Origin: an uncultured Acidobacterium sp.
GTDB taxonomy: Bacteria; Acidobacteriota; Vicinamibacteria; Vicinamibacterales; UBA2999
Direction of reading: 5' to 3'
DNA: 64,000 bases
NCBI GenBank assembly: GCA_964513235.1
Contig: CAZEMI010000295.1
Location: 2,390 to 66,389 of the forward strand
Within the stretch, counting starts at the first letter, position 1. Each line of letters starts with the position of its first letter. Under the pieces are notes generated by a model. It did not search any database, had not been told where the DNA came from, and was given only the letters and a program-made list of their open reading frames with translations. A program made the position numbers and the translations under genes. Shown here in pieces: positions 3,755-56,969 of the stretch.

Positions 3755-3780
3755 GTTCGCATCTCACCCGTTCGGCGTTT
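3755..3780 (+). promoter_or_regulatory. GTTCGY-N14-GCGTTT motif, site a
   Basis: GTTCGCatctcacccgttcgGCGTTT; it ends 81 nt before the ATG at 3862. Confidence 0.45.
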
Positions 3781-3861
3781 CGTAGATGGGACGGACTAGG
3801 CTCCCCCCGACGCCGTTAGCAGTCACAAGTCAAAGAAACGGCGAGAAAGGCGGAGGACGCG

Positions 3862-4125
3862 ATGCCGTCCGATTGGAACCCGCCGCCATCACGTCTGCTC
3901 GTCCGGGAAGATCTGGTGGAGCGGTTATCTAAGAACTTGATAGTCAGCCTGGAGGACGACCCGGTGGAAGCCTGGGCCAAGCGGAGAATCTGGAGGACCC
4001 TGCACTCGCGCAGCGACCTCGTTGCGGGCGCTCGCGAAGGGCGAGCCGACTCCCGCGAGGCGCCCGTCGTGAACTTGCGGCGGTGGCGTCGCGACCAGCT
4101 ATACGAGCGCCGGAGCTCTGAGTGA
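3862..4125 (+). CDS. Putative antitoxin (assigned by position only)
   Basis: 87-aa ORF preceded by GGAGGA. Its TGA stop overlaps the ATG of the downstream PIN gene (ATGA). I recognised no family from the sequence. Confidence 0.45.
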   Translation: MPSDWNPPPSRLLVREDLVERLSKNLIVSLEDDPVEAWAKRRIWRTLHSRSDLVAGAREGRADSREAPVVNLRRWRRDQLYERRSSE

Positions 4126-4601
4126 TAGGGCCCACCCGAATCCCCCCACGGGTGGCCCTCGATACCGGCGTTCTTGCAAGCGCGGAAGGTCTTCACGGCC
4201 AGCGCAAGCAGACGGTCGCACAGGAATTGATCCGCAAACTGCCCAAGGACGCCACTATTCTGCCCGTACAGGCCCTGGGCGAGCTCTGCCATTTGCTCGT
4301 GGACAAGGCCCACCGCTCACCCGAAAGCGCGCGTGTCTCGATCTTGCACTGGCACGAGACGTTCCCCGTCGCCGGCACGTCCGATAATGTGTTGCTCGAA
4401 GCAGCGCTCGTGGTTACGTCGCGCAGGATCAGCATCTGGGAAGCGGTGATGGTCGCTGCCGCCAGCAACGCCGGCTGCCGGCTCCTGCTGTCTGAGAACT
4501 ACGCTCACGAATTCACCTGGGCCGGCGTCACAGTGGCGAATCCCTTCGCCAACCCCCGGCACCCGATTCTCGACAATCTGCTGAAGCTGTCCGATCGCTG
4601 A
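4122..4601 (+). CDS. PIN-domain ribonuclease toxin (VapC-like)
   Basis: 159 aa. The N-terminal ..VALDTGVL.. acidic motif and later conserved acidic/Ser-Thr positions (SIWEAVMVAAA, LLLSEN) fit the PIN fold. It is translationally coupled to the upstream small ORF. Confidence 0.65.
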   Translation: MIGPTRIPPRVALDTGVLASAEGLHGQRKQTVAQELIRKLPKDATILPVQALGELCHLLVDKAHRSPESARVSILHWHETFPVAGTSDNVLLEAALVVTSRRISIWEAVMVAAASNAGCRLLLSENYAHEFTWAGVTVANPFANPRHPILDNLLKLSDR

Positions 4602-4669
4602 CAGCCGAGTCGCACCCCGCGATAAGCGGATTAGGACCGGGCTTGGAATGCACGGCCCGAAAGGCGGGA

Positions 4670-4894: not shown

Positions 4895-7800
4895 TTATTG
4901 CGGTCCGAAGGTAATCACGAGTTGCGGAGCGACGGCGCCTTCGCGGCTCGACAACGACTGCTCCGGACCCGCGGCGGCGCCTTCCGAGCCGTCGCGAATC
5001 AGGAAGCCGTGCGCCGCGTTCAGCGAGTACATCTCCTGGACCAGGGTGGTGACGGTCCATGCACGCAATCCGGTGCCCGACGCCGCCGACGGCGAGGTCG
5101 CCACCGTGCCAGCCGCGGCCGGCTGATTGCTCCAGGTCACGGCGTTCTCCGCCCACGCCGCGGCGACGCGCATCGCGCGCAGCGTGCGTCCGTTCACCGC
5201 GGACATTGACTCGACCCGCAGCGTCGCTGACTGCACGGCGCACCCCTGCGGCGCCTGCGGCAGCGAGAAGTTGATCAACGCGCGCGCGTTGGCGCTGCCG
5301 TTCTTCGACCGGACCTGCAAGGACGAGTCGTCACCCTTGTTCTGCGACGGGCTGCCCTGGTCGATCCACGCATCCGCTATCGCGCTCAGCGTCACCGGCG
5401 CGCCGCAGTTGATCGGCGCCACCGTCCACGAGGACGAGGCCGGCGATGCGTCGATGTTGCCGACCGCATCGATGGCCCGCACCGCGAAGGTGTGCTCGCC
5501 GAGCGACAGGTTCGAGTACGACGCCGGCGACGTGCACGCGCCATAGGCGCCGCCGTCGAGCGAGCACTCGAAGGTCGTGTCAGGCTCGTTGGTCTCGAAC
5601 GAGAACGTCGCGGAGGTCGCGATCGTGCTCGCCGTCGGTGCCGACGTGATGGTCGTGTCGGGCGCCGTCGTGTCGAGCGGCGCGATCGTCCAGGTGTAGC
5701 TGGCCGGCGTCTGGTCGACGTTGCCCGTCGCATCGATGGCGCGGACGGACCACGTGTGCGGGCCGTGGCTCAGGCTCGTGTAGCTGACCGTCTGCGCGCA
5801 CGGCGCGAACGGCGCGGCGTCGAGGCTGCACTCGAAGGTCGCACCCGGATCGTTCGAGGCGGCGGTGAACGTCGCGCTCGTCACGGTAGAGGTCGCCGGC
5901 GGCTGCTCGACGATGCCGGTGGTCGGCGGCGTGAGGTCGATCAGCCACTCGTAGTCGTCCGGCGTGGCGTCGGTCAATCCGGCCGATCCAGTCGCGCGGA
6001 CCCGCACCTCGTGGAGGCCTTCGGCCAACCCGGTGTAGGTGACCGGCGACGTGCACGGCGCGAACGTCCCGAAGTCGAGCGCGCATTCGAACGTCGACCC
6101 CGCTTCGCTGGCCTCGAAGGTGAGGGTGGCGCTGGTCGCGCCGGTCGCTTCGAGGATGATGCCACCGGGTCCGTCAAGCGGACCGGTGAGGATGACTGTC
6201 TCCGGCGGCACGCCAATCGTCCAAGTGGCGGAGGCTGGGGAGGCGTCCGTGTTACCCGCCGCATCTACGGCGCGGACCGCGAACGTGTGAGTCCCTCCCG
6301 CAAGCCCCGCCAGCGTGGACGGCGAGCTGCACGCAGCAAATGCTGCCGCGTTCAGCGCACACTCGAACGTGCTGTTGGCCTCGGTGGCCGTGAACGTGAA
6401 CGTCGCGTCAGTGGCGGTCGTCGTTCCCGACGGCGCCGACGTCATCGACGTCTCGGGGGCGATGGTGTCGGCCGCCGCCGAGATCGACCAGTCGTAAGTC
6501 GCTGCGGTCGCATCGGCGAAGCCTGCGGAATCGACCGCGCGCACCGCGAAGGTGTGGTTACCCGAACTCAGTCCGGTGAGCTGGACCGGCGAGCTGCACA
6601 CGGCGAACGCCGCGCCGTCGAGCGAGCACTGGAACGTCAGTGGCGCCGCGCCGTTGTCGGTCGCCGAGAACACGAACGTCGCGTCGGCGGTATCGCTGAT
6701 TGCGGCCGGACCGGCATCGATCACTGTTTCCGGCGCCTGCTCCACCGTGAAGGTGTGGCTGGCCGGCGTGCCGTCAACGTTGCCCGCCTCGTCGATGGCG
6801 CGCACCTCGAAGGTGTGCGTGCCGACCGCCAGGCCGGAGATCGCCTCAGGCGAGCCGCACAGTTCGAACATGGCGCCGTCGAGGCTGCACTCGTAGGTCA
6901 GCGCCTCGGCCGGCGATGTCGCGTCGCTGCCGCTGAACGTGAACGCGGCGTCGATCGCGAGCGAGACCAGCGCCGGACCTGAGACGATCGTCGTCTCAGG
7001 CGCGGTGGCGTCGGACACCACGGTCCAGGTGTAGTCGGCCGGCGTCGCGTCGGCGTTGAGCGACGCATCGGTGGCGCGGACGAGCAGGGTGTGCTCACCG
7101 AGCGCCAGCGCCGTGAGCTCGAGCGGCGACGCGCAGCCGCTGAACGCCGCGCCGTCGAGCGCGCACTCGAAATCGAGATCCGCCACCGGCGCGTTGTCGG
7201 TGCCGGTGAAGATGAAGCTCGCCGTCGTGGCCGTGCCCAGGGCGGCCGGACCCGAAACAATCTGCGTATCGGGCGCCGCAATGTCGAGGATCTCCCAGGC
7301 GTAAGTCGCCGCGATCGCCTCGACCAGGAGGTTGGCCTTGTCGGGCTGCACCTCGAAGCTGCGGGCGCCCGGCAGCAGGCCGATGTAGGTCACCGGCGAC
7401 GTGCAGAACTGCGGCGCCCCGCCATCGAGCGTGCACAGCGCCAGCGACGCCGGATCGTCGATCGTGAAGGCGAACGTCGCGGTCGTCAGCTCCGTCGACC
7501 CGGCCACGCCGAGTGCATCCGCCTCTCCAGCAGGGCCCGAGATGATCGTGACCACCGGCGGCGTCATGTCGCCGGTCTGCCAGCTGTAGCTGGCCGGCGA
7601 TTCATCGATGATGCCCGCCGCGTTGACCGCGCGGACGTCGAGCTGATGCTCGCCGTGCGGCAGGTCCGTGAACGTCACCGGCGAGGTGCACGCCACGAAC
7701 GGCTGCGCCAGGTCGAGCGAGCACTCGAACGTCACGTTCGCCTGCGTGGAGGCGAACGTAAAGGTTGCCTCCGTCGCCTCACTTTGCGCCGCCGGGCCGG

Positions 7801-10800
7801 ACGTCACGCTCGTTTCCGGCACGCCGCCGGCTGTGAACGAGATGGTGGCCTCCGTCGGATCGACGTGGCCTGCCGAGTCGAGAGCGCGCACTGCGAGGGT
7901 GTGCGTCCCCTCGGCGAGGTCGACGGTCTCCAGTTCATACGGCGTGCTGCAACCCTCGAACGCGCCGTTATCGATCGAGCATTCGTAGCTCAAGTCGAGC
8001 GGCGGCGTCAGGTCGTCGGTCCCCGTGAAGAGGAACTGGAGGATCGGGCTCTCCCCAGGCACCCCTGGCAGCGGCGTCATCGAGACGATCGTGGTCTCCG
8101 GCGGGAGGCCGACCTCCCACGTATAGACCGCGGGCGTCGGATCCACGGTGGACGCCGGTAACCCGTCGACCACGCCCAGGGTCACGAGCGCCTGGACCTC
8201 GAATTCATGCGGACCTTCGAGGAGCCCAACCACCACCCACGGCGAGGTGCAGGGCGTCGGGCCATCGCCGTCGAGGAAGCACTGGAACGTGGCGCTCGGT
8301 TCCGGACTGGAGAACGTAAAGGTCGCCGTGGCCGCTCCGCTTGGGCTCGCGGGACCCGACACGATCGCCGTGTCGGGCGCGCCGATAACCGTCCACGAGT
8401 AGCTGGCCGGCGAGGCGTCCGTATGGTTGCCCGCGTCAACGGCGCGGACCTGCAGGGTGTGCGCGCCCGGCGCGACGGTGAGGTCGTAGGGCGAATCGCA
8501 CGCCGAGAAGATTCCGCCGTCGAGCGCGCACTCAAACGTCGTGTTGAACTCCGTCGCGACGAAGACGAAGGTCGCCTGCGTCGCCGCGGTGGTGGCCGGC
8601 GGGCCCGCCACGATCACCGTATCCGGCGGCACCGTGTCGAGCGACGGATCGATGATCCAGGTGAAGACCTCGAGCATCGACTCGATGTTGCCGGCCGCGT
8701 CGATGGCCCGGACCTGGAAGATGTGGGTGCCGGCCGCCAGGCCGCTCACCGTGTAGGGCGACGTGCACGCAGCGAAGGCGAATCCATCGAGTGAGCATTC
8801 GAAGCGCACGCCCGGCTCGGGGACGCTGACCTCGAAGCTGAAGGTCGCCGTCGTCGCCTCCGTCTCACTCGGCGGCCCGGAGAGAATCGTTGTCTCCGGC
8901 GCGGTCACATCGAGGAACGTCCACGTGCGGGTAGCTGGCGTCGCGTCGGCGTTGCCCGCAAGGTCGACCGCGCGCACGGCCAGCGTGTGCTCGCCGGGCA
9001 GCTCGAGGTCGGTCAGCGCGGAGATCAAATCGAGCGTGTGCGGCGACGAGCACGACAGGAACGGCTCGCCGTCGAGCGAGCACTCGAAGGCCAGATCGAG
9101 CACCGGGGTCCGGTTGTCGGTTCCCGCGAACTCGAACAGCACGGTGACCGACGCGTTCACTCCCGACGGCCCCACGCTGATGACGGTCTCCGGAGCCGTT
9201 ACGTCAGGCGGGAGCGTCACCGTCCACGTGTGGACGGCCGGGGTCTGGTCGGCGAACCCGTAAGTGTTCGTCGCCTGGATCTCGAACTCCTGGGTGCCGT
9301 CGATCAGCCCGCGGGCCTCGAAGGGCGATACACAGGAAGCGAACGGCGCGCCGTTGAGCGAGCACTGGAACGTGGCCGGCTGATCCGAGCTGAACACGAA
9401 CGTCGCCGTGTCGCTGCCGCTGGGCGAAGCCGGCGCGACCAGGATCGTGGTCTCGGGTTCACTGACGACCGTCCAGGTATAGCTGACCGGCGCACCGGTG
9501 ACGAGGGCCTCGTTGACCGCGCGCACCTGGAACGTGTGTTCGCCAGGCAGCAGGTCGCCGTAGACGGCCGGCAAGTCGCAGGCCTCAAACGGCAGGCCGT
9601 CCAGCGAGCACTCAAAGGTCGCCAGCGGATCGGTAGCCGAGAAGCTGAACGCCGCGTCGGGACTCCCGGAAATGGCCGCCGGACCGGCCAGCAGCGTCGT
9701 CACCGGACCGGTCGTATCGAGCTGGATCGTCCAGGCGTAGCTGGCCGTCGGACCGACGTTGAGCGCCTCGTCGATGGCCCGCACCTGGAACTGGTGCGCG
9801 CCCTCCAGCAGGTCGTTGTACACGGCCGGCGACACGCACCCTTCGAACGCGCCGCCGTCGATCGCGCACTCGAACAACGTCGCGAGCGGATCGGCAGACG
9901 CGAAGGCGAAGATGGCGTCGGTGCTGGCCGTCACAGCGGCCGGACCCGACTGGATCGTCGTCGTCAGCGCGATGCCGGCGGCGTCGACCGTCCAGGTATA
10001 GGTAGCCGGCGTGGCGTCGACGACGCCCGCCGTGTCGACGGCGCGCACGCGGAACATGTGGCTGCCGACGGCGAGGTCGCTGTAGGACACCGGCGCGGTG
10101 CATGCGGCGAACGGCGCGGCGTCGAGGGCGCACTCAAAGGTCGCGGCCCGGTTCGACGACACGTTGAACGTCGCGCTCGTGCTGGTGGTGCTCAGCGTGG
10201 GACCCGACAGGATCTGCGTATCGAGCAGCGTCGTGTCGGCCAGGATCGTCCAGCCATACCGCGCCGGGGTCGGGTCGGCCGTCCCCGAGGCGTCGAGCGC
10301 CCGCACGTCGAACGTGTGCGTCCCGAGCGCCAGGCCGGCATACGACGCCGGCGATGTGCAGGCCGCGAAGGCCGCGCCATCGAGCGCGCACTCGAACGCC
10401 GTGCCGAGCACCGACTGGAGCTCGAACGTGGCGCTCGTGCTGGTCGTGGTCAGCGTCGGACCGGACAGGATGGCCGTGTCGAGAATGACCGTGCCTGGCT
10501 GCGTCTGGATCGTCCAGGTGTAGCTGGCAGGAGTCGGGTCCTCGTTGCCGAGCGCATCGGTGGCGATGACCTGGAAGGTGTGGAACCCATCCGACAACGC
10601 CTCGAGGCTCACCGGCGACGTGCACAGCGCGAAGCCGGCCCCGTCGAGCGCGCATTCGAACGTCGCGGGCGCCGCGGTCGCGGTGAACGTAAACGTCGCG
10701 CTCGTGGTGGCGGTGACGCTCGCCGGGCCCGAGGTGATCATCGTGTTGACCTGGTCGGCGACGCCGATGATCGTCCACGTGAAGCTGGCCGGCGTGGGAT

Positions 10801-13800
10801 CGACGTTGAGGACCTGGTCGATCGCCCGTACCTGGAAGGTGTGGGCCCCTTCGGACAGCTGGACGTACTCGACCGGCGAGCTGCAGCCCGCGTAGGGCAA
10901 GCCATCGAGCGAGCACTCGAAGGTCGCCGCCTCGTCCGCCACGAACGCAAACTCGGCCGACGATGCGACCGTCAGTGCCGCGGGACGGCTCACGATGGTG
11001 GTGTTCGGTGCGATCCGTTCCGCCGGATCCATCGTCCACGAGTAGGTGGCGGGCGTCGTATCGGGGCCGAGCGTCGTGTGGATCGCGCGCACCTCGAGCG
11101 TGTGCGGTCCCGGCTGCAGGCTGCCGAGCTCCTCGGTGTAGTAGAGCGGCGTCCCGTTCGGGCCGAGCACCGCCGCTCCGCAAGACTCCGGCGCGCCGCC
11201 GTCGAGCGTGCACTCGAAGGTCACTTCGGTGCTGTTCGACGAGAACGTGAAGGCCGCTTCCGAGCTGGCTGTCACCGCCGGCGGACCAGACAGAATGATC
11301 GTGTCGGGCGGTCCACTGAGGGCATCGACGAACCAGGTGTAGGACTCAGGCGTCGCGTCGACGTTCCCCAGCGCGTCGGTCGCCCGCACGGCGAAGGTAT
11401 GGCTGCCGACGGCGAGGCCGGTGTAGGTGGCCGGCGAGAAGCACTCGGCGAACGGAGCGCCGTCGAGCGAGCATTCGAACGTCGCGAGCGGCTCCGGTTC
11501 CCCGGTCACCCCATCGAACGCCGAGAACTCGAACGTGGCATCCGCCAGCTCCGTGAGCGCCGCCGGACCGTTGTCCAGCGACGTCCGCGGCGCCGCCAGG
11601 TCGGGCGACACGATGTCCCAGTTGTAGTCGGCAGGCGTCGGATCGGTGATGCCGGCCGGACTGGTGGCGCGCACCTGGAACTCGTAGGTGCCGGGCAGCA
11701 AGCCGACGTACAGGTGCGGCGAGCTGCAGGGCGTCCACTGCCCGAATTCAACGAGCTGCGTCACCGGATTCAGAATGCCGATGATGCAGGCGAAGGTCGC
11801 GCCGGCGGTGTCCGACGAGAACGAGAACGCCGCGGTGGTCGAGGTGGTGTTCTCGAGGGCGCCAAGCTGCGTCGGCCCGAGATCGAGCGGACCGAGGTCG
11901 ATGGTCGTCTCCGGCGCGGCGCCGGGTCCGGCGATCGTCCAGGTATAGCTGGCCGGCGTCGGATCGGGGTTGCCGGACCAGTCAACCGCATACACCGTGA
12001 AGGTGTGCGTGCCCGTCACCAGATCCTGGTAGTTGAGCGGCGCGATGCAGGTATTCGGGATCGCCCCGTCCAGCGCGCACTGGAACGTCGCGTTCGGCTC
12101 GGTGGCGCTGAACACGAAGGTCGCGCGCGACGAGCCGGTGACGAGCGTCGGTCCGGTCGTGATGATGGTGTCGGGCGCCGTGACGTCGGTACCTTCCACC
12201 ATCCACTGGTAGCTCACCGGTTCGCCGGCGTTACCCGCGGCATCAGCCGCGCGCACCGCGAACACGTGCGGGCCAGCGACCAGGTCGAGATACGTCGCCG
12301 GCGACGTGCAGGTCACGAACGGCCCGCCGTCAATCGAGCAGCCGAAACTGGCGCCCGCCTGGTCGGCCGAGAAGGTGAATGTGGCCGTCGCGTCGGCGGT
12401 CGTTGGCGCCGGCGCCGATTCGATGACCGCCACGGGCGCGACAAAGAGGATCCACGGGTAAGTCGCGGGCGTCGGGTCGGCGTTGAGCGCCTGGTCCACG
12501 GCGCGGACCTGGAGCGTGTGCGTTCCGACGCCGGCCACCGTGACGCTGAGCGGCGACGCGCAGGGCGCGAACGCCGCGCCGTCCACGGCGCATTCGAACG
12601 TCAGGAGCAGCGCGGGCGTCGCGTTGCCGTCGTTGCCGGCGAACGTGAACTCCACCGTCGCGTCCAGGGTCCCGCTGGCCGGCGGGCCTGTGACGATCGC
12701 CGTCTCTGGCGCCGTCGTATCCGCGGCGTAGGTCCACGTGTGAGTGGCCGGCGTCGGATCGATGTTGTCGGTCGGCGTTTGCGTTCCCGTGCCGCCCAGT
12801 CCCTCGTCGATCGCCCGCACCTCGAACGTGTGCTGGCCGGGCGCAATCAGCGGGAAGGCCTCGAACAGGTTGAACGGGCTGATGCAGCTCACCCAGGCGG
12901 TGTTCAGCGTGCTGTCCAGCCGGCACTCATAGAGCAGCCGGACGGTCGGCGTCATGTTGTCCGTCCCGGTGAACTGGAACATCACATCGCTGGTGTTGTT
13001 CACCGGCACCACCGTCATGATCGTCTCAGGCGGCGCCGTGTCGAGCGACGGGACGACGTCCCAGCCGTATTCGATGGGCTCGACCGACGTGTTGCCGTTC
13101 GCATCGGTCGCGATGATGCGGAACAGGTGCGCGCCGGGCCCCAGGCCCGTGTAGGTCACACCCGACACGCACGGCAGGAACGGCTGCAGGTCGATCGAGC
13201 ATTCGAACGTCGCGCCCGGCACGCTGGCCGTGAACGTGAACATGGCCACCGGGCTGTCGGTCTCGCCACCAGTGGGGAACTCCGCCGGGTCGGTCGGCGC
13301 GATGTACGCCGGGCCCGACGTGATCGTCGTCCAGATGCCCAGGATCGACCACTCGTAGGTCGCCGGCGTCGGGTCGACGTTGCCTTCCAGATCGATGGCG
13401 CGCACCTGGAACACGTGCGGACCGATCTCATGCTCCAGGAACTGGAACAGGGCGCCGGCCGTGGACGACGGCGGCAGCGACGGGTCGAGGAAGCCGCACG
13501 GCGCGAACGACCCGCCGTCGATCGAGCACTGGAACGTGACGTCGGGCTCGTTGGCCGAGAAGATGAACGTCGCCTCGAAGAGCGGCGACACCACGCCCGG
13601 GCCCGAGATGATCGTCGTGTCGGGCGCCACGCCCGACGGCAACAGCGCGATCGTCCAGGTGTAGCTGGCCGGCGTCGGGTCGATGTTCCCCTGCACGTCG
13701 ATGGCGCGCACCTCGAAGGTGTGCGATCCCTCGCTCAGGTTGCTGAAGATCGTCGGGTTCTCGCAGACCTGCGTCTCCCAGGCCGCCGGATCGGTGCTGT

Positions 13801-47938: not shown

Positions 47939-49183
47939 TCACGCGCACGCCGCGCCGCCGTCGCCGGTCAGATGCCAATGCACGCCAAGCGTCGATGCCA
48001 CGGCGGCGAGCGAGAGATGCCGGTCGAATGCGGCCAGGGCCGCGGCCGCGAGGCGATGACGCGCAAACGGATTGGCCAGCAGCTCGATCGTCGCGCGCGC
48101 GAAATCGTCAGGGCCGTCGGCGATTGCCACCGCGTGCCGCACGACGTCGAGGCCTTCGACGCCTTTCGTCGTGGTCAGGATCGCCTTGCCATGACGGCAC
48201 CCGTCGACGATCTTCAGGCGCGTGCCGCTGCCATGGTGAATCGGTGCCACGACGACGGCGGCATCGTTGTACAGCCGCAGGAGATCGGGTGCGGGATCCA
48301 TGAGATCGACGCCGGGTGGCAGCGCCGCTCGGCGCGTCAACCCGACGGCGCCGCGGCCGGCCAGAATCAGCCGTGCGTCGGGGCGCGCCGCGATCACGAT
48401 TGGCCAGACGGCGCGCAACAGCCAGTCTGCCCCGTTTGCGTTTGGACCGTACGCGAAGTTCGCGACCATCAGGACGCGGGGCGCATGACCGAGACGCGGC
48501 GCGGGGCTCGGCAGCGGCGCCATGCCGCTCGGCACGACCGTCACGGGTGCGCGCGACACAAGCTCGCTGATGCGCTGCTGATCGACCGCCGAAACGGCCC
48601 ACACCTCGTCCACGGTCGCGAGGTGCCGAAGTGCGACGCGCCGAACGCCGCGCCAGTTCGCCCACGGGCCGGCGCGCTGCAACAGCGGCACCGTCCGGAT
48701 CAGTTCTCGAGCCAGGAACTCGTCGGCATCATGACAGTCGATCACCAGGCGCCCGCTGAACACCCGCCGGATGTCGGGCACCAGATGCAGGAACAACGAC
48801 CGCGCAATCACGGTGTTCGGGCGCAGCTCGCGGATGGCCTCGACGAAGAAATCCGCCAGCCGCGAAGTGTCCAGCCACCACCCAAACGGGTGATCCCCGC
48901 TGCAGGTGGCGTAGCCGAGTTTCCGGACGATGGTCGATCGCCAGGAAGTCTCCGTGCGCAGGGGGATCCGGCCGGCAAGCACGATCTGGCCCCGCAGCGC
49001 GGCCGCCTCCTCCGCAACCGTGAGATCGCGGCGCGGCGACGCGAGCGCCAGCATGGGCGTCCAGCCAAGGCGCTGGAGGACCGCGACGTGCTGGGCATCG
49101 CGAATAGCGTTGCCGGCTCGTGCTGGAAAAGGCGACTCCGGAAGCAGCAAGAGGGCGCGGTGCTGGTCGGCGTTGATCGACAT
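47939..49183 (-). CDS. Glycosyltransferase family 4
   Basis: ..LLLLPESPFPARAGNAIRD.., ..VVAPIHHGSGTRLKIVDGCRHGKAILTT.. motifs. Start trimmed to the ATG at 49183. Confidence 0.7.
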   Translation of the reverse strand: MSINADQHRALLLLPESPFPARAGNAIRDAQHVAVLQRLGWTPMLALASPRRDLTVAEEAAALRGQIVLAGRIPLRTETSWRSTIVRKLGYATCSGDHPFGWWLDTSRLADFFVEAIRELRPNTVIARSLFLHLVPDIRRVFSGRLVIDCHDADEFLARELIRTVPLLQRAGPWANWRGVRRVALRHLATVDEVWAVSAVDQQRISELVSRAPVTVVPSGMAPLPSPAPRLGHAPRVLMVANFAYGPNANGADWLLRAVWPIVIAARPDARLILAGRGAVGLTRRAALPPGVDLMDPAPDLLRLYNDAAVVVAPIHHGSGTRLKIVDGCRHGKAILTTTKGVEGLDVVRHAVAIADGPDDFARATIELLANPFARHRLAAAALAAFDRHLSLAAVASTLGVHWHLTGDGGAACA

Positions 49184-49185
49184 CG

Positions 49186-50232
49186 TTAGTGCAGCGTGGT
49201 GACGGCGGTATAGGCGGCTTCCAACCGCCCGCCGAGGCGCTTGACTGAGTACTCGTGCCTGACGAGCTCGGACAGATCCGGTTCCGCAGGCGCCCACACG
49301 GCCTTCAGCACTGCTGACCTGATTGACGCGCGGTCGCGCGGATTGCAGTAGGAGACAAGATCGTCGAAGTACTCACGCGTCGCGCCCTGCTCGGTAATCG
49401 CAACCCGGCAGCCGAGCCCGGCCGCCTCGAGCGCCGCAAGGCCGCAGGTTTCACGCAGGCTCGGCTGCACGTACACGCCCGCGACCTTCATCGCCGCCAG
49501 CACCACCTCGTGTGGTTGTACGCCGACGAACCAGTGACGGCCGCGAGCCGCCGCCTTGCAGCGCGGCAAGTAATCGTCGGTATCTTCCGGTGAGGGATCG
49601 CCGATGAACATGACCCGTACCGGTGTGTCGTCGAGAGCCTCGATCAACGCGAGCTGGTTCTTGACCGCGTGAAAGGAACCCACGCAGAGCACGACCTGTG
49701 AATCGGCCAGCACGTCATGCATCCACGGCGGCAACGCCATGGCGTCGCCGCCGGACACGCGCACGGCGTTTGGCACGACGCGCAGACGATCGGTGGGGAC
49801 GCGGGCGTGCCGAGTCAACCGATCGGCCTCGGCGTGCGACGCCGGCAACAGCAAGTCCGGAAAGGCGAGGAAATGTCTAATCTCGCGCTCGTCCGTCGGT
49901 GGCTGCCAGCTTGGACTGCCAAGACGATGGAGGGCATGGCGCACCTCGCGTAGCAGCCACGGGCGCCGAGGCCGCTCGCACCAGAGCGTTGGCGTCACCA
50001 CCAGGGGACGGCCGAAGGCTTTGAGCCGGGGCCAGCACTCCCAGCCGACGCAGTGAAAGTAATGAATCACGTCAAACGACCCGATCCGATCCCGCCATTG
50101 GTCGTACAGGATGACGGTGTGCCCGCGACGCTGCAGCTCCTCACGGCATGTCAGCAGCATTTGTTCGCCGCCGCCGGCGACCGCGAAGGCCAACGGATGC
50201 GTGAGAAACGCGATCCTGAGCGGCCCGGTCAT
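49186..50232 (-). CDS. Glycosyltransferase family 4
   Basis: ..RIAFLTHPLAFAVAGGGEQ.., ..ETCGLAALEAAGLGCRVAIT.. motifs. Start trimmed to the ATG at 50232. Confidence 0.8.
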   Translation of the reverse strand: MTGPLRIAFLTHPLAFAVAGGGEQMLLTCREELQRRGHTVILYDQWRDRIGSFDVIHYFHCVGWECWPRLKAFGRPLVVTPTLWCERPRRPWLLREVRHALHRLGSPSWQPPTDEREIRHFLAFPDLLLPASHAEADRLTRHARVPTDRLRVVPNAVRVSGGDAMALPPWMHDVLADSQVVLCVGSFHAVKNQLALIEALDDTPVRVMFIGDPSPEDTDDYLPRCKAAARGRHWFVGVQPHEVVLAAMKVAGVYVQPSLRETCGLAALEAAGLGCRVAITEQGATREYFDDLVSYCNPRDRASIRSAVLKAVWAPAEPDLSELVRHEYSVKRLGGRLEAAYTAVTTLH

Positions 50233-50251
50233 GACCGGAAGATCGTGCCGG

Positions 50252-51286
50252 TCACGCGGCCAGGTCGGCGAGCAGCGCCGTCGCGCGGCTGACGTAGGTG
50301 TGCGCGCTCGCAATCGACGCGGCGCGCTCGCGCACGCGGCGAGCCCACCGGTGGTCGCCGAGGAGGCGATCCAGCTTGTCGTCGATCTCGGCTGGGTCGC
50401 GGTAGTAGACGGCCGCGTCATCCTCGGGAAAGAACTCGGCCTGCTCGCGGGTGAAACTGGAGAGCATGACGCCGCCGCCGCCCGGAATTTCGAAGGTGCG
50501 CATGTTATGCCCCGGCATGTTCAAATCGCTCAGCACGTTCAGGCTCACCGCGGCCGCGGCATATGCGGCGGCGCACTGCCGCGCCACGAGCGCACGCGAA
50601 TGCGTGATATGGCGGGTGCCGCTCGCCGCGCGCGTCCAGCGGTTGCCCCACAGCCCGACGGTGTGACGCGTAACGGCGCGGAGATGGGCTTCACGCTTGT
50701 CGGTGTGATTACCGACGAACACCACCGAATGGGCCGGTCCGCAGCTGGCGCAGACGGGGTTCGGCGCGCTGGTCGCGAAGGCAGGGTCTACACCAAACGG
50801 CAAATATGCAGCGGCAACTCCCGTTTGCCTCAGCTGCCGCGCCAGGTCGCGCTGCCAGATCCAGACCCGCGTGTACTCGGCGAGGATCGCCACCAGATCG
50901 CGCCGTTGCGCCGAAGTGTGCCGCGGATCAAGCGGCACGCCGCAGTACGGGTTGTCTGGATAGTAGTTGCCGATCGGGATGCCAAGCGTGTGGCGGATCA
51001 ATCGCACGGTGGCCGCATGCAGGTAGGTCCCCTTGATCACCAGCACGAAGTCCGGACGCGTGCGGCGAATAATCGCCACCGTCTGGGCGTTCATCCGCTG
51101 CCACAGCCACCCGCGCAGCAGCCGCCGCACGGCACGGCATTGCGCGCCGGGCAGGGCGGAGTAATACGCGCGGTCGCAATCGAACCGGCTCACCTGCTTG
51201 CCCAGCCGTTCGAACGCGCGCGCAAAGCTCGCCGCCAGTTGACCTGGGCCCATGGGCCCGATCACCATCACACGATCTGGAGACAT
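50252..51286 (-). CDS. CgeB-like glycosyltransferase (Glyco_trans_1_2-type C-terminal domain)
   Basis: ..NMRTFEIPGGGGVMLSSFTREQAEFFPEDDAAVYY.. resembles CgeB-family proteins (from memory). Confidence 0.65.
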   Translation of the reverse strand: MSPDRVMVIGPMGPGQLAASFARAFERLGKQVSRFDCDRAYYSALPGAQCRAVRRLLRGWLWQRMNAQTVAIIRRTRPDFVLVIKGTYLHAATVRLIRHTLGIPIGNYYPDNPYCGVPLDPRHTSAQRRDLVAILAEYTRVWIWQRDLARQLRQTGVAAAYLPFGVDPAFATSAPNPVCASCGPAHSVVFVGNHTDKREAHLRAVTRHTVGLWGNRWTRAASGTRHITHSRALVARQCAAAYAAAAVSLNVLSDLNMPGHNMRTFEIPGGGGVMLSSFTREQAEFFPEDDAAVYYRDPAEIDDKLDRLLGDHRWARRVRERAASIASAHTYVSRATALLADLAA

Positions 51287-52437
51287 CGTTCAGGTGCCAA
51301 CAGGTTGCGCAGCTCGATCACCAGCCGCGGTGCCACGACCGCCGGCGCGAACGATCGCTCGACGCAGGCCCGGCCCGCCGCGGCGATCGCGCGGCGGCGT
51401 TCGCAATCACGCGCCAGCGCCACGGCCGCCGCGGCAATCTGCGCGTCATGCTCGGCGTGACTGATCGGCGCTTCACGATCCCATTCCAAGCCCTCGGCAC
51501 CCTCCGCGTTGGCGACCACCGGAACTCCGTACGCCATCGCCTCCAGCACTTTCACTTTCATGCCGGTACCGACGGTGGCGGCGTTCACGAGCACCGACAA
51601 CTGTTCGAAGACGACCCGTGGATCGCGGACGTCTTCGATGATCTCGACACCCGCGATCTCGCACTCCTCGCGCAGGTAGCGGCTCGCATCCCAACCGGCG
51701 ACGAGGCAGCGCACGCCGGGCATCTCCTGCCGGATCAACGGCACGATCCGCGACACGAAACGCCGCGCCGCGGCGCGGCTCGGTTCCCAGAACATCGAGC
51801 CGATGAACCCGATTGCCGGCTGGCGCGGCGGCCCCACGGGGTCGTAGAGACCGGCGTCGATGCAGAGCGGAACGACGGACACGCGAGCCGCCGGCGCCAG
51901 CGCGCGTGTCAGGTCGGCCAGCCGGCGCGTCACGACACGGATCCGGCCAATCCGATCGATCGTCATCCGTTCGGCACGCCGCGCGATCAGGCTTCGCCGG
52001 CGATCGGTCAGCGAGTTCCCGGCCTGGAGGTCGACATGCCGCAGGCACTGGACGCTGCACACCACATTGCGGAAGCCCTCCACCGCCCGCCCCGTCGATA
52101 GGTGTTCGGCGAAAATGACGTCCACGCCACGCTGGGCGAGCGACCGCGCCGTGCGGCCGAACTGAGAGGCAGACAATTCCCAGTCGGCACGCCAGGCCGA
52201 GCGGAGCTTTCGCTCGAGGAGCGCGGATGGCTCCGGGGGATCGATGCTCGTGAACGCGATGTTGGTTTCGGCGAAGTACGAGGCCGGCTCCTCGGGCCCG
52301 CGCGATCGGGTGCGCAGATACAGGACGCTGATCTCGTGACCTGACGCATCGAGCGCTCTGAGGAGGGGTCCATAGTAGCGCGAGGCGGTACTGGCCCACG
52401 GATACGGCGACTCGGGCAGGAGAATGAGTATCTTCAT
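51268..52437 (-). CDS. Glycosyltransferase family 4
   Basis: ..MKILILLPESPYPW.., ..GTGMKVKVLEAMAYGVPVVA.. motifs. Start trimmed to the ATG at 52437 (ATGA overlap). Confidence 0.8.
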   Translation of the reverse strand: MKILILLPESPYPWASTASRYYGPLLRALDASGHEISVLYLRTRSRGPEEPASYFAETNIAFTSIDPPEPSALLERKLRSAWRADWELSASQFGRTARSLAQRGVDVIFAEHLSTGRAVEGFRNVVCSVQCLRHVDLQAGNSLTDRRRSLIARRAERMTIDRIGRIRVVTRRLADLTRALAPAARVSVVPLCIDAGLYDPVGPPRQPAIGFIGSMFWEPSRAAARRFVSRIVPLIRQEMPGVRCLVAGWDASRYLREECEIAGVEIIEDVRDPRVVFEQLSVLVNAATVGTGMKVKVLEAMAYGVPVVANAEGAEGLEWDREAPISHAEHDAQIAAAAVALARDCERRRAIAAAGRACVERSFAPAVVAPRLVIELRNLLAPERCLQIV

Positions 52438-53891
52438 GGCTGAAAGACGAGCGCGCGATCGTGACGTCGCAAAATGAGGAACACGCCGGCGGCGCCGACA
52501 ACAGCGCCGCATGCCGCCATCGCGGCGAGAGCCGTGATCACGTTGGTCACGCGCGCTTCAAGGAGACGCTGAACGACCAGCGCCGCCACGACGGCGACGA
52601 TCGCGCCGACCATGGTGCGCAATCTCGATTCGTGACCCAGCGTCAGGAAGGACCGCCGCAACAGGAGCGTCGTGAACCCGACACCCGCGAGCCAGAGTCC
52701 CACCGCGGCGGCAATCGACGTCCCGCCGAGCCACGGATGCAACAGCACGCCGGCGACGCCGGCAATCAACACCCACGCCAGCATCGTCATCGCCGTGAGA
52801 TCGGCCCGGCCGGCGCCTTCGATGACGGCGGCATCGATCGACGTCACGCCGATAATCCCGTGACCGAGCGCCAGCGCCACGAGAATCGGGCCGCCGTGGG
52901 TCCTCATCTCAGGGCCGATCCACACTTCGAAAAAGGCCGGACCCAGCGTGACGAGAGGTAGCGTCAACGTCAGCGACGCGCACAACAGCATGCGGCGCAG
53001 CGTCCCATGCTGGCGGCGCAGCTCGTCGATCTGCGCGGTGGCGTGCAGCGCGCTCGCCCGCGAGTAGAACATCGACGTGGAGACGCCGCCGAGCAGGTTC
53101 ACTCTCGCTGCCAGTTGCGCCGCGACGGCGTAGTGCGCCAGTCCCGTGACCGATCCCACAACTGCGATGATCAGGCGATCGAGCTGCAGCATCATCAGCA
53201 TCGCGATCCGGCCCGTGCACGACCAGCCGCTGAACGCGATCATCTCGGCGAGCCGGGCGCGTTCGAACCGAGGCGCGTGCGACACCCTCGGCAGCGTTTG
53301 CTGCGCGGCGCGCAGTGACAGGAAGAGCGTGGCGATCGCCACCAGCAAATTGGCGGCGATCGCCGCGGTCAGCGACGGCTGGATGCGGACCGCCACGATC
53401 GTCGCGAGCGGCAGCAATGCGCTGCCGGCCAGGAGCACGCGGCCGAGGGCGTCGAACCGTTGCTGCGCGCGCAGCAGCGCATGGACCAGACTCGACTGCA
53501 GCGAGAGCGTCACGGCGATGGCGGCGAGCGCCACCACGAGGTCGAGCTGCCGCGGGAGGCGCGCGCCGGCCAGCTGCGCGAGCGATGGCGTCGAGATCAT
53601 CGCCACCACTCCGGCGGCAATCCCAATGCCCAGCAGCACCCCGGCTGTCGTGTGGAAGCGTGACGCCAGCATCGCAGTTCGGCCATGCGCCAGGTCGTCG
53701 GCAAAGTACCGCGTCGATGCCCATGGCAGGCCCAAATCGACATACATGGCGTAAGAAGTGACGGTGACGATCAGCAGGTAGAGCCCGAAGTCGGCGACCC
53801 CGAGGGCGTCAATCAGTGCCGGTGTCACCAGCAGAGTGCCGGCGCCGCCCGCCGCCGCGGCGGTCAGCGACCAGAGGGCGCCGCGCCTCAT
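52434..53891 (-). CDS. Wzx-like oligosaccharide flippase (MOP/polysaccharide biosynthesis protein family)
   Basis: 485 aa with about 12-14 TM segments. The N-terminal ..LIDALGVADFGLYLLIVTVTSY.. is typical of this family. Confidence 0.8.
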   Translation of the reverse strand: MRRGALWSLTAAAAGGAGTLLVTPALIDALGVADFGLYLLIVTVTSYAMYVDLGLPWASTRYFADDLAHGRTAMLASRFHTTAGVLLGIGIAAGVVAMISTPSLAQLAGARLPRQLDLVVALAAIAVTLSLQSSLVHALLRAQQRFDALGRVLLAGSALLPLATIVAVRIQPSLTAAIAANLLVAIATLFLSLRAAQQTLPRVSHAPRFERARLAEMIAFSGWSCTGRIAMLMMLQLDRLIIAVVGSVTGLAHYAVAAQLAARVNLLGGVSTSMFYSRASALHATAQIDELRRQHGTLRRMLLCASLTLTLPLVTLGPAFFEVWIGPEMRTHGGPILVALALGHGIIGVTSIDAAVIEGAGRADLTAMTMLAWVLIAGVAGVLLHPWLGGTSIAAAVGLWLAGVGFTTLLLRRSFLTLGHESRLRTMVGAIVAVVAALVVQRLLEARVTNVITALAAMAACGAVVGAAGVFLILRRHDRALVFQP

Positions 53892-56050
53892 GCCCTGCTC
53901 TCCGCCGGCGGCGGATCGTGATACAGGCCGTATTCGGCGCGGTAATAGCGCGAGTAGTAATAGGCATCGCGCGCCAGGTCGACACGGTTCAGGACGCTGC
54001 CCAGCACGCGCGCGCCTACGGCGTCGAGGCGCTCAATCGCGGCCTGCACGGTGGCGCGGCTCGACATCTCCGAGCCGATCACCAGCAGCACGCCGGCCGT
54101 GACGCGGGCCAGCACGGCCGTGTCGGCCACCGCCATCACCGGCGGCGAATCGAGAACGACCCACTCGTAGTCCTCGGTGAGGCGGCGCAGCGTATCGGTG
54201 AACTGCGCGGTCGCGACCAGCTCCACCGGATTGGGCGGCAACCGCCCGGCGAGAAGCAGCGACAGGCCCGGAACATCGGTGCTGCGGATCGCGTCGGCCA
54301 GCGAGGCCTTGCCCACCATGACGTTGGTCAGGCCGGGCTCGGCGGCCTGCCCGAACAGCTGGTGCAGACGCGGCCGCCGTAAGTCGGCATCGATCAGAAT
54401 CACGCGCGCCCCCAGTTGCGCCAGCCCGACGGCGAGATTGCTCGCCACCGTCGTCTTGCCCTCGTTGGTAATGGCGCTGGTGACCAACACCGATCGTCCG
54501 CGTGGTTGAAAGGGGGAGAACAGCACGTTGGTCTGCACGACATGCAACGCTTCCCGGAACCCCGCGGGCACGTCGCTGCTCACCAGCGGCGCGCCGCGTT
54601 GCTGGGCGGCGGGAATCTCCGGCACCAGTCCGAGAAAGGGCAGGCCGAAACGCTCGCGAATCTCTTCCGGCGACTTGATGCGATCGTCCAGCGCTTCGAC
54701 GCCGACGACGAGCACCAGCGCGAGGAGCATGCCGCCGATGGCGGCGAGCATGATGTTGCGGCCGATACGCGGTGAGACCGGCAGCCGCGGCACTTCGGCC
54801 TCATCGACGATCCGGATGTTGTTCGTGCGCAGCTCGCTCGACACGCCGGTCTCGTTCGCGCGCTGCAGGAGGCTCTGGTAGACCTGACGAGAGCTCTCCA
54901 CTTCGCGCTGGAGGACGCCGTATTCGATCGCCGCCCGGGTCATCGACAGCGCCTCGCGCTTCTGTGCGTCGAGTGCGACGGTCAGGCTCTTTTCCAGGGC
55001 CTCGGCGGCGGCGAACTCGTGCTGCACGGCGCTCGCGATCTTCGCAACTTCCTGATCCAGCCGCGTCTCAGCCTGTGTCACGGCGGCGCCGAGGTTGATC
55101 AGATCAGGATGGCGATTGCCGACCTTCTGCATCAGTTCGCCGTGCTGCCGCTTCAGGGTCAACAGTTCGGCTTTGAGCTGCCGGATGAACGAGTCCGACA
55201 GAATTGCCGGGAACGCATCCAGCGCGGCGGGCTCCGCCGATACTGCGCGGAGCTGGTTGTAGAGCGTCTCTTTCTCGATCCGCACTGTCTTGGCCCTGGT
55301 TACCGCGGTATTGAGGTCGGCGAGCTTCTGCACGACGATGTTCTGTGTGTCGTCGACCGCGATCGCCTGGTTCGCCTCGCGGTAGCGCTGTAAGGCGACC
55401 TCGGCGGCTTCGACTTGCGCGCGCTGCTCGGTCAATCGCTCCGCCAGCCAGCCCGAGGCTTCGCGCGACGACAGCAGCCGGAATTCGAGGTTCTGCCGGA
55501 TGTAACTCTTGGCGTGAGCGTTCACCACGCTCGCCGCGAGCGCGGCATCGGGGGAACGGTAGGTGAGGTCCACAATGCGGCTGTTGCGAACCGGAACCAC
55601 ATCGAGCCCGGCCAGCAAGCGATCGATGGCCACGGCGGCCACGGTGTGATCGACATCAGGCCGGAGGGCTGGATGACTCCATAACGCGAGCGCGTCGAGC
55701 GTCTTCCGGGCCAGGCTTCGGCTCAGCAGGACGTTGTATTGAGTCTGATAGTAATCGGCGCGCGATTGCGTCTCCTCGATGACCTGCTCGAAACTGATGA
55801 CATTGGGGGTGTCGGCCTCGATGAGAATCTTGGCGCGCGCCTCGAAGATCGGCGCGGCCGTAAAGCTGTGCACGGCCGCGCTCAGCAGCACGATGGCAAA
55901 CGCGCTCGACGCGACCCACCGGCGCTTGGAGAGAATTCGGCCATACTCGATCAATCGCGCCGGCTCGAATTGCAGCTCGGTCCACGAGAGGCGCGCCGGC
56001 CCATCGCCTCGCGGCCGTTGCGGCGTCGAATCTGAGGATGTGTTCATCAA
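53888..56050 (-). CDS. Polysaccharide co-polymerase / tyrosine autokinase (Wzc/GumC-like: Wzz domain + coiled coil + P-loop CpsD-like domain)
   Basis: Walker A ..TSAITNEGKTTVASNLA.. and ..ILIDADLRRPRL... The N-terminal TM + Wzz-like region is followed by a long coiled coil. Confidence 0.9.
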   Translation of the reverse strand: MMNTSSDSTPQRPRGDGPARLSWTELQFEPARLIEYGRILSKRRWVASSAFAIVLLSAAVHSFTAAPIFEARAKILIEADTPNVISFEQVIEETQSRADYYQTQYNVLLSRSLARKTLDALALWSHPALRPDVDHTVAAVAIDRLLAGLDVVPVRNSRIVDLTYRSPDAALAASVVNAHAKSYIRQNLEFRLLSSREASGWLAERLTEQRAQVEAAEVALQRYREANQAIAVDDTQNIVVQKLADLNTAVTRAKTVRIEKETLYNQLRAVSAEPAALDAFPAILSDSFIRQLKAELLTLKRQHGELMQKVGNRHPDLINLGAAVTQAETRLDQEVAKIASAVQHEFAAAEALEKSLTVALDAQKREALSMTRAAIEYGVLQREVESSRQVYQSLLQRANETGVSSELRTNNIRIVDEAEVPRLPVSPRIGRNIMLAAIGGMLLALVLVVGVEALDDRIKSPEEIRERFGLPFLGLVPEIPAAQQRGAPLVSSDVPAGFREALHVVQTNVLFSPFQPRGRSVLVTSAITNEGKTTVASNLAVGLAQLGARVILIDADLRRPRLHQLFGQAAEPGLTNVMVGKASLADAIRSTDVPGLSLLLAGRLPPNPVELVATAQFTDTLRRLTEDYEWVVLDSPPVMAVADTAVLARVTAGVLLVIGSEMSSRATVQAAIERLDAVGARVLGSVLNRVDLARDAYYYSRYYRAEYGLYHDPPPAESRA

Positions 56051-56862
56051 AAGTACCTGGTCGGCACCACGATGGTGTCGCCCGATCGAATCGGATCGTG
56101 CAACCGCGCCTTGATTTCGCGCTGCTCGCCGTCGACGGTCCGAATCACGCGTACCCGATTCAACGCGCCCACGTTCGTGGCGCCTCCGGCCAGCGCCAGC
56201 GCCTGCAGCAGCGTCAACTCGCCTGGCACCGGATACCTGCCTGGATTCTTCACTTCGCCGAACACATAGACCGACTCCACGCGCGGCGCGAACACCGTGT
56301 CGCCGTCTTGGAGGGCTACGCTGCGCGACAGACTGTTGGTTTCGAGGTCGCGGACCGCAACGCGGGTCACTTCGCTCCCCTCCACTTGGCCCGGGAGAAT
56401 CGGGCGCGTCGCGCCTGACGACCTCACCACCACAACCTCGCCCGATGCCACGGCGGTCAACGCGCCGGCGCGGGCAATGACCTCGATCAACGTCGTCTCG
56501 CCCGTCAACGGGTAGGCGCCCGGCTGTCGCACTTCGCCGACGACAAACACGCGCTGGCTGCGGTAGTGCTCGACGGCGACGGCCACTTGCGGCGCGTTGA
56601 TGAAACCGTCGGCGAGCAGCCGCTGCAGCTCGCTTTCGAACTGCCGCAGGGTCCGTCCGCCGGCGCTGACGCGGCCGAGCAGCGGAAAACTGAACGAGCC
56701 ATCGGCGTCGACGGCGTAGCGGCTCGAGAGTCCCGCATGGTCGAAGACGCTGATGGCAAGCACGTCTTGCGGCCCAATCAGGTAATCGCGAGGCTGCGCA
56801 GACGCACCACTAGCCGCGACGCATATCAAAGTGAGCACACGAGCGCACCTCATGGCAGTCAT
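56047..56862 (-). CDS. Polysaccharide export outer-membrane/periplasmic protein (Wza-like: Poly_export + SLBB domains)
   Basis: Signal peptide, ..YLIGPQDVLAISVF.. and ..GDTIVVP.. motifs. It is the first gene of the operon. Confidence 0.9.
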   Translation of the reverse strand: MTAMRCARVLTLICVAASGASAQPRDYLIGPQDVLAISVFDHAGLSSRYAVDADGSFSFPLLGRVSAGGRTLRQFESELQRLLADGFINAPQVAVAVEHYRSQRVFVVGEVRQPGAYPLTGETTLIEVIARAGALTAVASGEVVVVRSSGATRPILPGQVEGSEVTRVAVRDLETNSLSRSVALQDGDTVFAPRVESVYVFGEVKNPGRYPVPGELTLLQALALAGGATNVGALNRVRVIRTVDGEQREIKARLHDPIRSGDTIVVPTRYF

Positions 56863-56943
56863 CCGCAGAACGTGAAACCGCGCGGGCTCCGCCCCTCTCG
56901 CTTACATGGTCCTGGAGGGGCGCGGCGCGGCCGTATTCTCCTT

Positions 56944-56969
56944 AAACGCCACGACCGCCCAAAACGAAC
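56944..56969 (-). promoter_or_regulatory. GTTCGY-N14-GCGTTT motif, site i
   Basis: GTTCGTtttgggcggtcgtgGCGTTT on the minus strand; 81 nt upstream of the wza-like ATG (56862). Confidence 0.45.

Follow-up and report, generated by a model that had tools for sequence, protein, structure and literature searches.

A GTTCG/GCGTTT motif as the probable promoter of a kinase-linked extracytoplasmic function sigma factor and its cell-surface regulon in an uncultured acidobacterium

The bipartite motif GTTCGY-N14-GCGTTT recurs between the genes of a 64,000-nucleotide (nt) stretch of contig CAZEMI010000295.1, hereafter called the window. An earlier examination of this DNA (the sequence-only reading) had listed nine copies, described them as always intergenic and always pointing at the adjacent gene, and proposed that they are promoters of the extracytoplasmic function (ECF) type, serving a compact cell-surface regulon that includes the only sigma factor gene found here. 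That gene lies in an operon between the genes for an exported protein of 186 amino acids (aa) and a Hanks-type Ser/Thr kinase. The operon and the genes predicted to be under the control of the motif are given below by their positions in the window; L003 and L005 are two of the related loci compared further on.

3862-4125, plus strand: antitoxin gene, predicted target; 39% identity to the L003/L005 antitoxin (tblastn)
4122-4601, plus strand: PIN toxin gene, predicted target; weak PIN match, 51% identity to the L003/L005 toxin (tblastn)
4895-22657, minus strand: giant secreted protein of 5,920 aa with several beta-helix/NosD blocks, two CBM96 domains and many Ig-like repeats, predicted target
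23248-26139, minus strand: 963-aa beta-helix/NosD and CBM96 protein, paralogue of the giant protein, predicted target
26551-29541, minus strand: Hanks-type Ser/Thr kinase with one transmembrane segment and extracytoplasmic PD40/TolB-like beta-propellers
29531-30148, minus strand: ECF sigma factor of 205 aa, proposed reader of the motif
30281-30841, minus strand: exported 186-aa protein with a signal peptide and no family match, first gene of the sigma operon
31082-37435, plus strand: secreted, kexin-like S8 subtilase of 2,117 aa with a proprotein-convertase P-domain, TIG and CBM96, predicted target
37490-56862, minus strand: Wzx/Wzy-type polysaccharide operon with wza at its head, predicted target operon

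The nine motif copies, numbered along the window, are located as follows.

Site 1, 3755-3780, plus strand: 81 nt upstream of the antitoxin start, between co-directional genes
Site 2, 22753-22778, minus strand: 95 nt upstream of the 5,920-aa gene
Site 3, 22867-22892, minus strand: 209 nt upstream of the 5,920-aa gene, in a tandem duplication of about 80 nt together with site 4 (repeat families D1 and D2)
Site 4, 23030-23055, minus strand: 372 nt upstream of the 5,920-aa gene
Site 5, 26185-26210, minus strand: 45 nt upstream of the 963-aa gene, with a GAGGAG Shine-Dalgarno sequence in the gap
Site 6, 26226-26251, plus strand: back-to-back with site 5, facing the 3' end of the kinase gene
Site 7, 30981-31006, minus strand: 139 nt upstream of the 186-aa gene, at the head of the sigma operon
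Site 8, 31045-31070, plus strand: 11 nt upstream of the protease ATG, back-to-back with site 7 between divergent genes
Site 9, 56944-56969, minus strand: 81 nt before wza, between divergent genes, and followed by a conserved hairpin in the 5' untranslated region (UTR)

An exact pattern search of both strands returned exactly nine matches in the window, and all of the positions and strands reported earlier were confirmed. In 100 dinucleotide-preserving shuffles the mean was 0.02 matches and the maximum 1, which bears out the earlier judgement, made from an estimate of about 0.01, that the motif is not a product of chance. The invariance of the 14-nt spacing was likewise upheld: a scan with spacers of 10-18 nt gave the same nine N14 sites, and no GTTCGY/GCGTTT pair at any other spacer was found in the window. 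Permitting one or two mismatches added eight matches, making 17 against about 16 expected in total; because this relaxed count is close to chance, the motif is sharply bounded and has no halo of degenerate copies. All nine sites fall in non-coding DNA, which makes up roughly 6% of the window according to our own gene map (P about 1e-11), so that the description of the sites as always intergenic stands. Their extended consensus is c-GTTCG-Y-TTTc ... G-GCGTTT-(t/a)a, in which C mostly precedes GTTCG, TTTc mostly follows it, G precedes GCGTTT in eight of the nine sites, and T/A-A tends to come after GCGTTT. GTTC and CGT are 17 nt apart, with the CGT core held by the -10 box, and the two boxes form neither an inverted repeat nor a convincing direct repeat. 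Measured from the final T of GCGTTT, the distances to the start codons are 11-372 nt, and good Shine-Dalgarno sequences are present between motif and start codon at the sites inspected. Regarding orientation, sites 1-4 are informative because the flanking genes are co-directional, and all four aim at the downstream gene, whereas sites 5-9 lie in divergent or otherwise ambiguous intergenic regions; the claim that the motif always points at the adjacent gene therefore holds for sites 1-4 and is left ambiguous at sites 5-9 by the layout of the flanking genes. When co-directional sites of related loci are added (L001 at 5311 and 5404, L007 at 8407 and L003 at 14500), all eight orientation-informative sites aim downstream, and a motif read in the reverse orientation is excluded by sites 1-4 and these co-directional orthologous sites.

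The sigma factor has 2,849 relatives at E <= 1e-10, many of them near 60% identity and a handful above 65%. Orthologous loci were compared in four further lineages, namely L001/2, L003-5, L007-9 and L036, with sigma identities of 85, 80, 73 and 71%, respectively. The string of exported protein (184-234 aa), sigma factor and kinase with beta-propellers is shared by all five lineages, the window included, and in all five the strict motif is present 47-139 nt upstream of the first gene of the string. In an alignment of the five promoters, only C-GTTCG-T and GGCGTTT are invariant, and flanks and spacers are scrambled; the flanking DNA has diverged beyond alignment with the boxes unchanged, a pattern that reads as a classic phylogenetic footprint. 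The sequence-only reading had named the orthologous loci of related genomes as a place to look for the motif, and it was found there in four of the four further lineages. Other target genes are matched as well: L001 has two tandem copies before its giant protein gene, L007 has the motif before an S8/CBM96 protease gene, and in L003 the orthologous PIN pair is preceded by GTTCGG-N14-GCGTTT, at 14500 on the minus strand. In the orthologous lineages, the motif also precedes a BBP2_2 porin gene and a PBP-like gene (one copy each), and one divergent copy aims at a MASE9-PAS hybrid histidine kinase gene that is absent from the window. The same three-gene string appears in the gene tables of two further orthologous contigs, those of P0006 (49.8 kb) and P0002, the former of which also encodes proteins of 5,313 and 950 aa and an S8/CBM96 protease close by.

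Scans of reference genomes and metagenomes with the sigma factor gave paralogue-level loci (49-63% identity), which were used as negative controls. At 27 loci (about 177 kb) around sigma relatives of 49-68% identity, drawn from Vicinamibacterales and other Acidobacteriota and lacking the exported-protein gene, 0 copies of the strict motif were found, and loose matches occur there at chance level, mostly inside genes. The motif thus accompanies the orthologue in 5/5 cases against 0/22 for relatives (Fisher P about 1e-5). The proposal of a compact cell-surface regulon gains support from this comparison, as the motif stands before orthologues of the same target classes and is absent around the paralogues. 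A related motif, TGTRCAC...(G/C)CGTTT, stands next to the sigma gene at three paralogous loci, with the same geometry, nearly the same -10 and a different -35, as would be expected if sigma-4 specificity has diverged among paralogues. These sites are at L019:2026-2051 (minus strand), with an identical copy starting at 1531 (minus strand) of L020, at L015:844 (minus strand) and at L021:653 (minus strand), in loci whose sigma factors have 53-58% identity; the L019 copy aims at a divergent secreted-protein gene.

Because the motif is asymmetric and directional, has a 17-nt core spacing and heads the sigma factor's own operon, it is read here as the putative promoter of the local sigma factor. We consider it probable that this factor is autoregulated and kinase-linked and controls a cell-surface/exopolysaccharide regulon. 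ECF sigma factors usually autoregulate, which permits promoter prediction of this kind (PMC7826278). Blocks 16-17 nt apart with CGT in the -10 are present at the nine window sites and all orthologous sites, and the transcription unit of the sigma factor itself is preceded by a copy, which is site 7 in the window and has equivalents in L001/2, L003-5, L007-9 and L036. Comparative genomics thus supports the bipartite promoter of ECF type that had been suggested earlier, with a -35 (GTTCG) lacking the typical AAC, and also supports the idea that the gene string with the only sigma gene is autoregulated, given the same motif upstream of the operon in the four further lineages. The accompanying view that these are neither sigma-70 nor sigma-54 promoters was borne out, as neither consensus fits. 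A consensus scan of 22600-31200 placed a housekeeping sigma-70 promoter (TTGACA-N16-18-TATAAT) at none of the motif copies. As to sigma-54 (-24 TGGCAC and -12 TTGC, 5 nt apart), inspection by eye showed that some sites read TGGCGTTT, that site 2 has no GG, and that no site has TTGC at the required distance.

In the proposed mechanism, GTTCG-N16-CGTTT (in full, c-GTTCGYTTTc-N9-yG-GCGTTT-ta) would provide the -35 and -10 elements for RNA polymerase carrying the 29531-30148 sigma factor, with sigma-4 binding cGTTCGYTTT and sigma-2 binding GCGTTT; these contacts, like the transcription start positions, are inferred. The sigma factor would be co-transcribed and translationally coupled with the transmembrane Ser/Thr kinase, whose beta-propellers would face outside. 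An extracytoplasmic cue would activate the kinase, which would in turn activate the sigma factor, presumably via phosphorylation, and the holoenzyme would then fire from nine promoters. Its own operon (186-aa protein, sigma factor and kinase) would be one of the targets, creating positive feedback, and the others would be the two beta-helix/CBM96 surface proteins, the kexin-like S8/CBM96 protease, the PIN pair, the wza operon and a transcript from site 6 with no clear gene. The output is likely a surface and matrix programme, in which the membership of the PIN pair appears conserved in L003.

The predicted product of 29531-30148 has the features of an ECF (group 4) factor of the sigma-70 family. 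Sigma70_r2 matches above the Pfam cutoff (E 2.7e-9), Sigma70_r4_2 falls slightly under it (24.3 vs 25.7 bits) and no other Pfam match occurs in the 205 aa, including PF07638 (Sigma70_ECF), which matches many more distant relatives. TIGR02937 (sigma70-ECF) is above cutoff, and the best NCBIfam match is the Planctomycetaceae-specific TIGR02984, far below its cutoff (64.6 vs 183.75 bits). The nearest solved relatives are ECF SigL and chain 6in7, deposited as a sigma-H factor, which we take to be AlgU. The public gene call for the sigma factor is a shorter, 141-aa version (P0005). Region 2.2 reads E-T-V-D-L-V-Q-E; among close relatives D69 and Q72 are invariant (12/12) and the first position is D or E, so that this factor and its 11 closest relatives keep the acidic (D/E)-T-x-D-L-V-Q-E.

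The kinase has all of the catalytic motifs (VALK, HRDLKAQN, DFG and APE). Its gene probably begins with a GTG at 29541 and so shares 11 nt with the end of the sigma gene. It adjoins the sigma gene in every orthologous lineage, overlapping it in most. Kinase-linked ECF groups typically have no anti-sigma factors (PMC7826278), and no match to anti-sigma families was obtained among the proteins neighbouring the sigma factor here; a novel anti-sigma factor may be present, or the N-terminal ~85 residues of the kinase may have that role. The 186-aa protein has an N-terminal signal peptide and no cytoplasmic domain. It has three detectable relatives among 5.8 billion sequences, and its predicted fold consists of two tandem ferredoxin-like beta-alpha-beta-beta-alpha-beta domains (model with pLDDT 77). 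A fold search with this model gave weak, generic tandem RRM/ferredoxin-like matches only, and the guess that the C-terminal half resembles a subtilase propeptide was not established by these RRM-like matches. It is a tentative and rather unlikely extension that the 186-aa protein acts as a secreted ligand or co-sensor of the kinase propeller. A self-amplifying loop from secreted protein through Ser/Thr kinase to ECF sigma factor would then serve autoinduction or matrix sensing and commit cells to a matrix of giant adhesin and exopolysaccharide; kinase control in such a loop would be unlike that of the ECF43 group of sigma factors, because the sigma factor keeps the acidic core-binding motif.

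Several observations weigh against the reading of the motif as an autoregulated, kinase-linked ECF promoter or against parts of it. The -35 at every site is c-GTTCG-Y-TTT and contains no AAC; some ECF groups are known to use a -35 that deviates from the norm, and the missing AAC lowers the typicality of the promoter and leaves the mechanism possible. Site 6 has no convincing target gene. L035, whose sigma factor is 68% identical and which lacks the exported-protein gene, has only a -35-like GTTCGCTTTC box with CGTC three bases too far away. The role of the kinase in sigma control is inferred from gene adjacency only, and the acidic region 2.2 is kept, so that phosphorylation would not be needed in the ECF43 manner. 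The 132-nt gap between the 186-aa gene and the sigma gene contains a terminator-like hairpin, and in the orthologous loci no conserved second promoter or other element was found between the first gene and the sigma gene; read-through into the sigma gene is for these reasons assumed. Lastly, the distribution of the motif in this genome is known from about 64 kb alone, which limits any genome-wide reading.

Other explanations of the nine sites have to be weighed against these points. The motif could be a real promoter read by another sigma factor encoded elsewhere, with the local operon as one target in a sigma cascade. The abundance of close ECF paralogues in acidobacterial genomes, documented above by the number of relatives near 60% identity, lends this some plausibility, as do the related motif with nearly the same -10 at the paralogous loci and the fact that only 64 kb of the genome is visible. 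The motif nevertheless travels with this sigma orthologue in five independent lineages, whatever the neighbours, and is absent around the 27 loci with paralogues or more distant relatives; autoregulation is moreover the rule for ECF sigma factors (PMC7826278). Since the motif tracks this orthologue and not its paralogues, such a cascade is disfavoured and appears quite unlikely. A third idea, that the copies derive from a small repeat or mobile element or reflect chance composition and have no regulatory role, is effectively refuted. Sites 3 and 4 do lie in a tandem duplication, but outside it only the two boxes are common and the spacers are unrelated, the chance expectation is 0.02, the boxes are invariant across lineages with flanks diverged beyond alignment, and position and orientation relative to genes are constant.

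It is rather unlikely, too, that the motif is an operator for a transcription factor beside unrecognised promoters, for example a response regulator working with a hybrid histidine kinase and a sigma-54 activator. A hybrid kinase and a sigma-54-type activator are indeed encoded beside the motif pair in orthologous loci, but no such regulator gene occurs within the 64 kb that hold nine sites. Back-to-back site pairs recur, and CGTTY occurs in both boxes 21 nt apart (two helical turns), so that a tandem-binding protein is conceivable; the sites are however mostly solitary rather than paired, and the boxes are unlike each other with an ECF-like spacing. The strict directionality toward the downstream gene at 8/8 informative sites also argues against an operator. 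Neither a sigma-54 pattern (-24 GG / -12 GC, read by eye) after the sites nor a sigma-70-like promoter in these intergenic regions was found. The end of site 8 only 11 nt before the protease ATG had led the sequence-only reading to the caveat that either the mRNA is leaderless or the motif is an operator. The ATG at 31082 was confirmed by alignment with the L007 orthologue, in which signal peptide and mature N-terminus match, and the protease mRNA would be nearly leaderless, with a leader of a few nucleotides. In L007 the motif site is 43 nt upstream of the protease gene; the short leader is therefore specific to the window and gives no reason to call the motif an operator, and the caveat tips toward the leaderless alternative.

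The promoter reading can be set beside known systems. The E. coli sigma-E promoter is GGAACTT-N16-TCAAA, that of alphaproteobacterial EcfG-type factors GGAAC-N16/17-CGTT, and that of M. tuberculosis SigL TGAACC-N16-CGTgtc. Like the promoters of autoregulated ECF (group 4) factors, the window sites consist of two blocks in a fixed orientation; about 17 nt separate the -35 core from a -10 that contains CGT, and T-rich sequence follows the -35 core. One copy heads the operon of the sigma factor itself, and the regulon appears small, largely local and envelope-related. They differ from the textbook cases in that the -35 core is GTTCG, not G(G)AAC, in the tandem arrays of two to three promoters on the giant gene and one almost leaderless target, and in that the window locus has no recognisable anti-sigma gene.

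Among kinase-linked systems, the ECF43 sigma/Hanks-kinase pairs EcfP-PknT of Vibrio parahaemolyticus and EcfK-PknS of Xanthomonas citri have been described (PMC8999054, PMC13147305). In ECF43 factors the DAED of region 2.2 is lost and STTA or QTTA stands instead; they are inactive until phosphorylated and depend on phospho-threonine (PMC8999054, PMC13147305). The window resembles these pairs in that the sigma gene is followed directly by the gene for a membrane-spanning Ser/Thr kinase whose extracytoplasmic sensor domain is large, in the lack of a recognisable anti-sigma factor and in a dedicated envelope or defence gene set. Unlike ECF43 factors, the window sigma factor retains an acidic region 2.2, and because these acidic residues are retained it is by this region not of the ECF43 type. 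If the kinase acts on the sigma factor, the mechanism must thus differ from that of ECF43, and the invariant Thr67 within the motif is a candidate target. Kinase-associated groups ECF59, 61, 62 and 217 (Planctomycetes) and ECF283 (Actinobacteria) have been defined, none of which is characterised experimentally (PMC7826278, PMC8999054); in these groups an acidic, DAED-like motif is kept, and Ser/Thr residues occur within it or close by (PMC8999054). The window sigma factor is similar to them in being kinase-linked with the acidic motif retained, and differs in its phylum, Acidobacteria, with named relatives in Vicinamibacterales, and in an operon that opens with a rare exported 186-aa protein.

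Acidobacteria and Planctomycetes are rich in kinase-linked ECF sigma factors. According to the literature consulted, two pairs only have been studied experimentally, both proteobacterial and both ECF43 (PMC8999054, PMC13147305), and no published promoter or regulon for an acidobacterial kinase-linked ECF sigma factor was found in the literature searched. With nothing but sequence to go on, the present locus yields a promoter motif with sharp limits, a regulon that is conserved and an evident site of autoregulation. It would be directly testable in a heterologous host, offering an experimental system for a barely studied class of regulators outside Proteobacteria and a way into the question of how matrix production is switched on in uncultured soil Acidobacteria. 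The type of regulation, an autoregulated, kinase-linked ECF sigma factor with a local envelope regulon, is familiar, and the new example appears well supported computationally; distinctive here are the uncultured acidobacterium, the atypical -35 and the unusual exported protein that opens the operon. The result is a useful annotation to specialists rather than a conceptual surprise.

The promoter regions show further features of their own. The giant gene of the window has three tandem sites, two of which stem from the ~80-nt duplication, and promoter multiplication on this gene recurs across lineages, given the two tandem sites of the L001 giant gene. Within 22820-23060, sites 3 and 4, each with about 50 nt downstream, form a diverged tandem duplication of 76% identity, and each copy has a short GC hairpin right after the predicted transcription start. 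An open reading frame (ORF) of 121 aa at 22766-23131, which overlaps sites 2-4, has a non-coding GC pattern. The GTTCG boxes of sites 5 and 6 start 16 nt apart in back-to-back arrangement, and such pairs recur with 17-18 nt geometry in L001, L003 and L007. A small palindrome, GCGGGAATTTCCGC, at 26211-26224 fills the 15 nt that separate the back-to-back -35 boxes of these two sites; it was flagged by a terminator scan and is more likely a spacer or binding site.

Behind site 6, the sequence-only reading had seen a small secreted ORF as the target, a proposal that was not confirmed. The G+C contents of this ORF at the second and third codon positions (GC2 and GC3) are both 0.67, a non-coding pattern given that real genes here have about 0.5 and 0.8, respectively, and no homologue was found in the related loci; the PIN toxin-antitoxin pair, by comparison, has a coding-like GC3. 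A search for a structured RNA downstream of site 6 gave a fold no better than shuffled sequence (z = -1.4), and no Rfam match was obtained anywhere in the window. The site 6 transcript is probably non-coding and runs toward the 3' end of the kinase gene. Just downstream of site 7, in the ~139-nt 5' UTR of the sigma operon, a 20-nt unit is repeated 3.8 times with 89% matches (30888-30963, minus strand). This tandem repeat is window-specific, being absent from the orthologous 5' UTRs of L001, L003 and L007, and may either serve as a binding array for some other regulator or have arisen by recent slippage. In L002:2274-6525, L003:4721-9034 and L007:1384-3705, the sigma operon is divergent from the MASE9-PAS hybrid kinase gene, which has its own motif, and a sigma-54-type response regulator lies beyond the hybrid kinase in L002, L003 and the P0006 contig. 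The window is without this hybrid-kinase module, and the S8 protease takes the divergent position.

The remaining features lie at the edges of the motif-bearing region and within the polysaccharide operon.

700-3198, minus strand: ADOP-family duplicated MacB/FtsX permease (TIGR03434, 858 bits)
up to 3643, plus strand: glyoxalase-like gene
40636-40661, minus strand: one-mismatch motif copy GTTCGT-N14-GCGTCT inside a gene of the polysaccharide operon; the GT4 (WecA-like) glycosyltransferase gene starts 177 nt downstream
from 57013, plus strand: PBP-like lipoprotein gene, divergent

The ADOP permease is a hallmark of Acidobacteria and, together with the named relatives of the sigma factor, places this DNA in Acidobacteriota and probably in Vicinamibacterales. 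The polysaccharide operon includes wza, a wzc-like tyrosine kinase gene, a flippase gene, about nine glycosyltransferase genes, the GT4 (WecA-like) transferase gene and a Wzy-like polymerase gene. The copy at 40636-40661 within it could be an internal promoter and is statistically indistinguishable from chance. In the 5' UTR of wza, a 27-nt stretch at 56883-56909 has 89% identity to L003:502-528, the 5' UTR of the BBP2_2 porin gene, a different first gene that lies behind the equivalent motif site. The CGCCCCTC...GAGGGGCG hairpin within this stretch may be a conserved leader structure.

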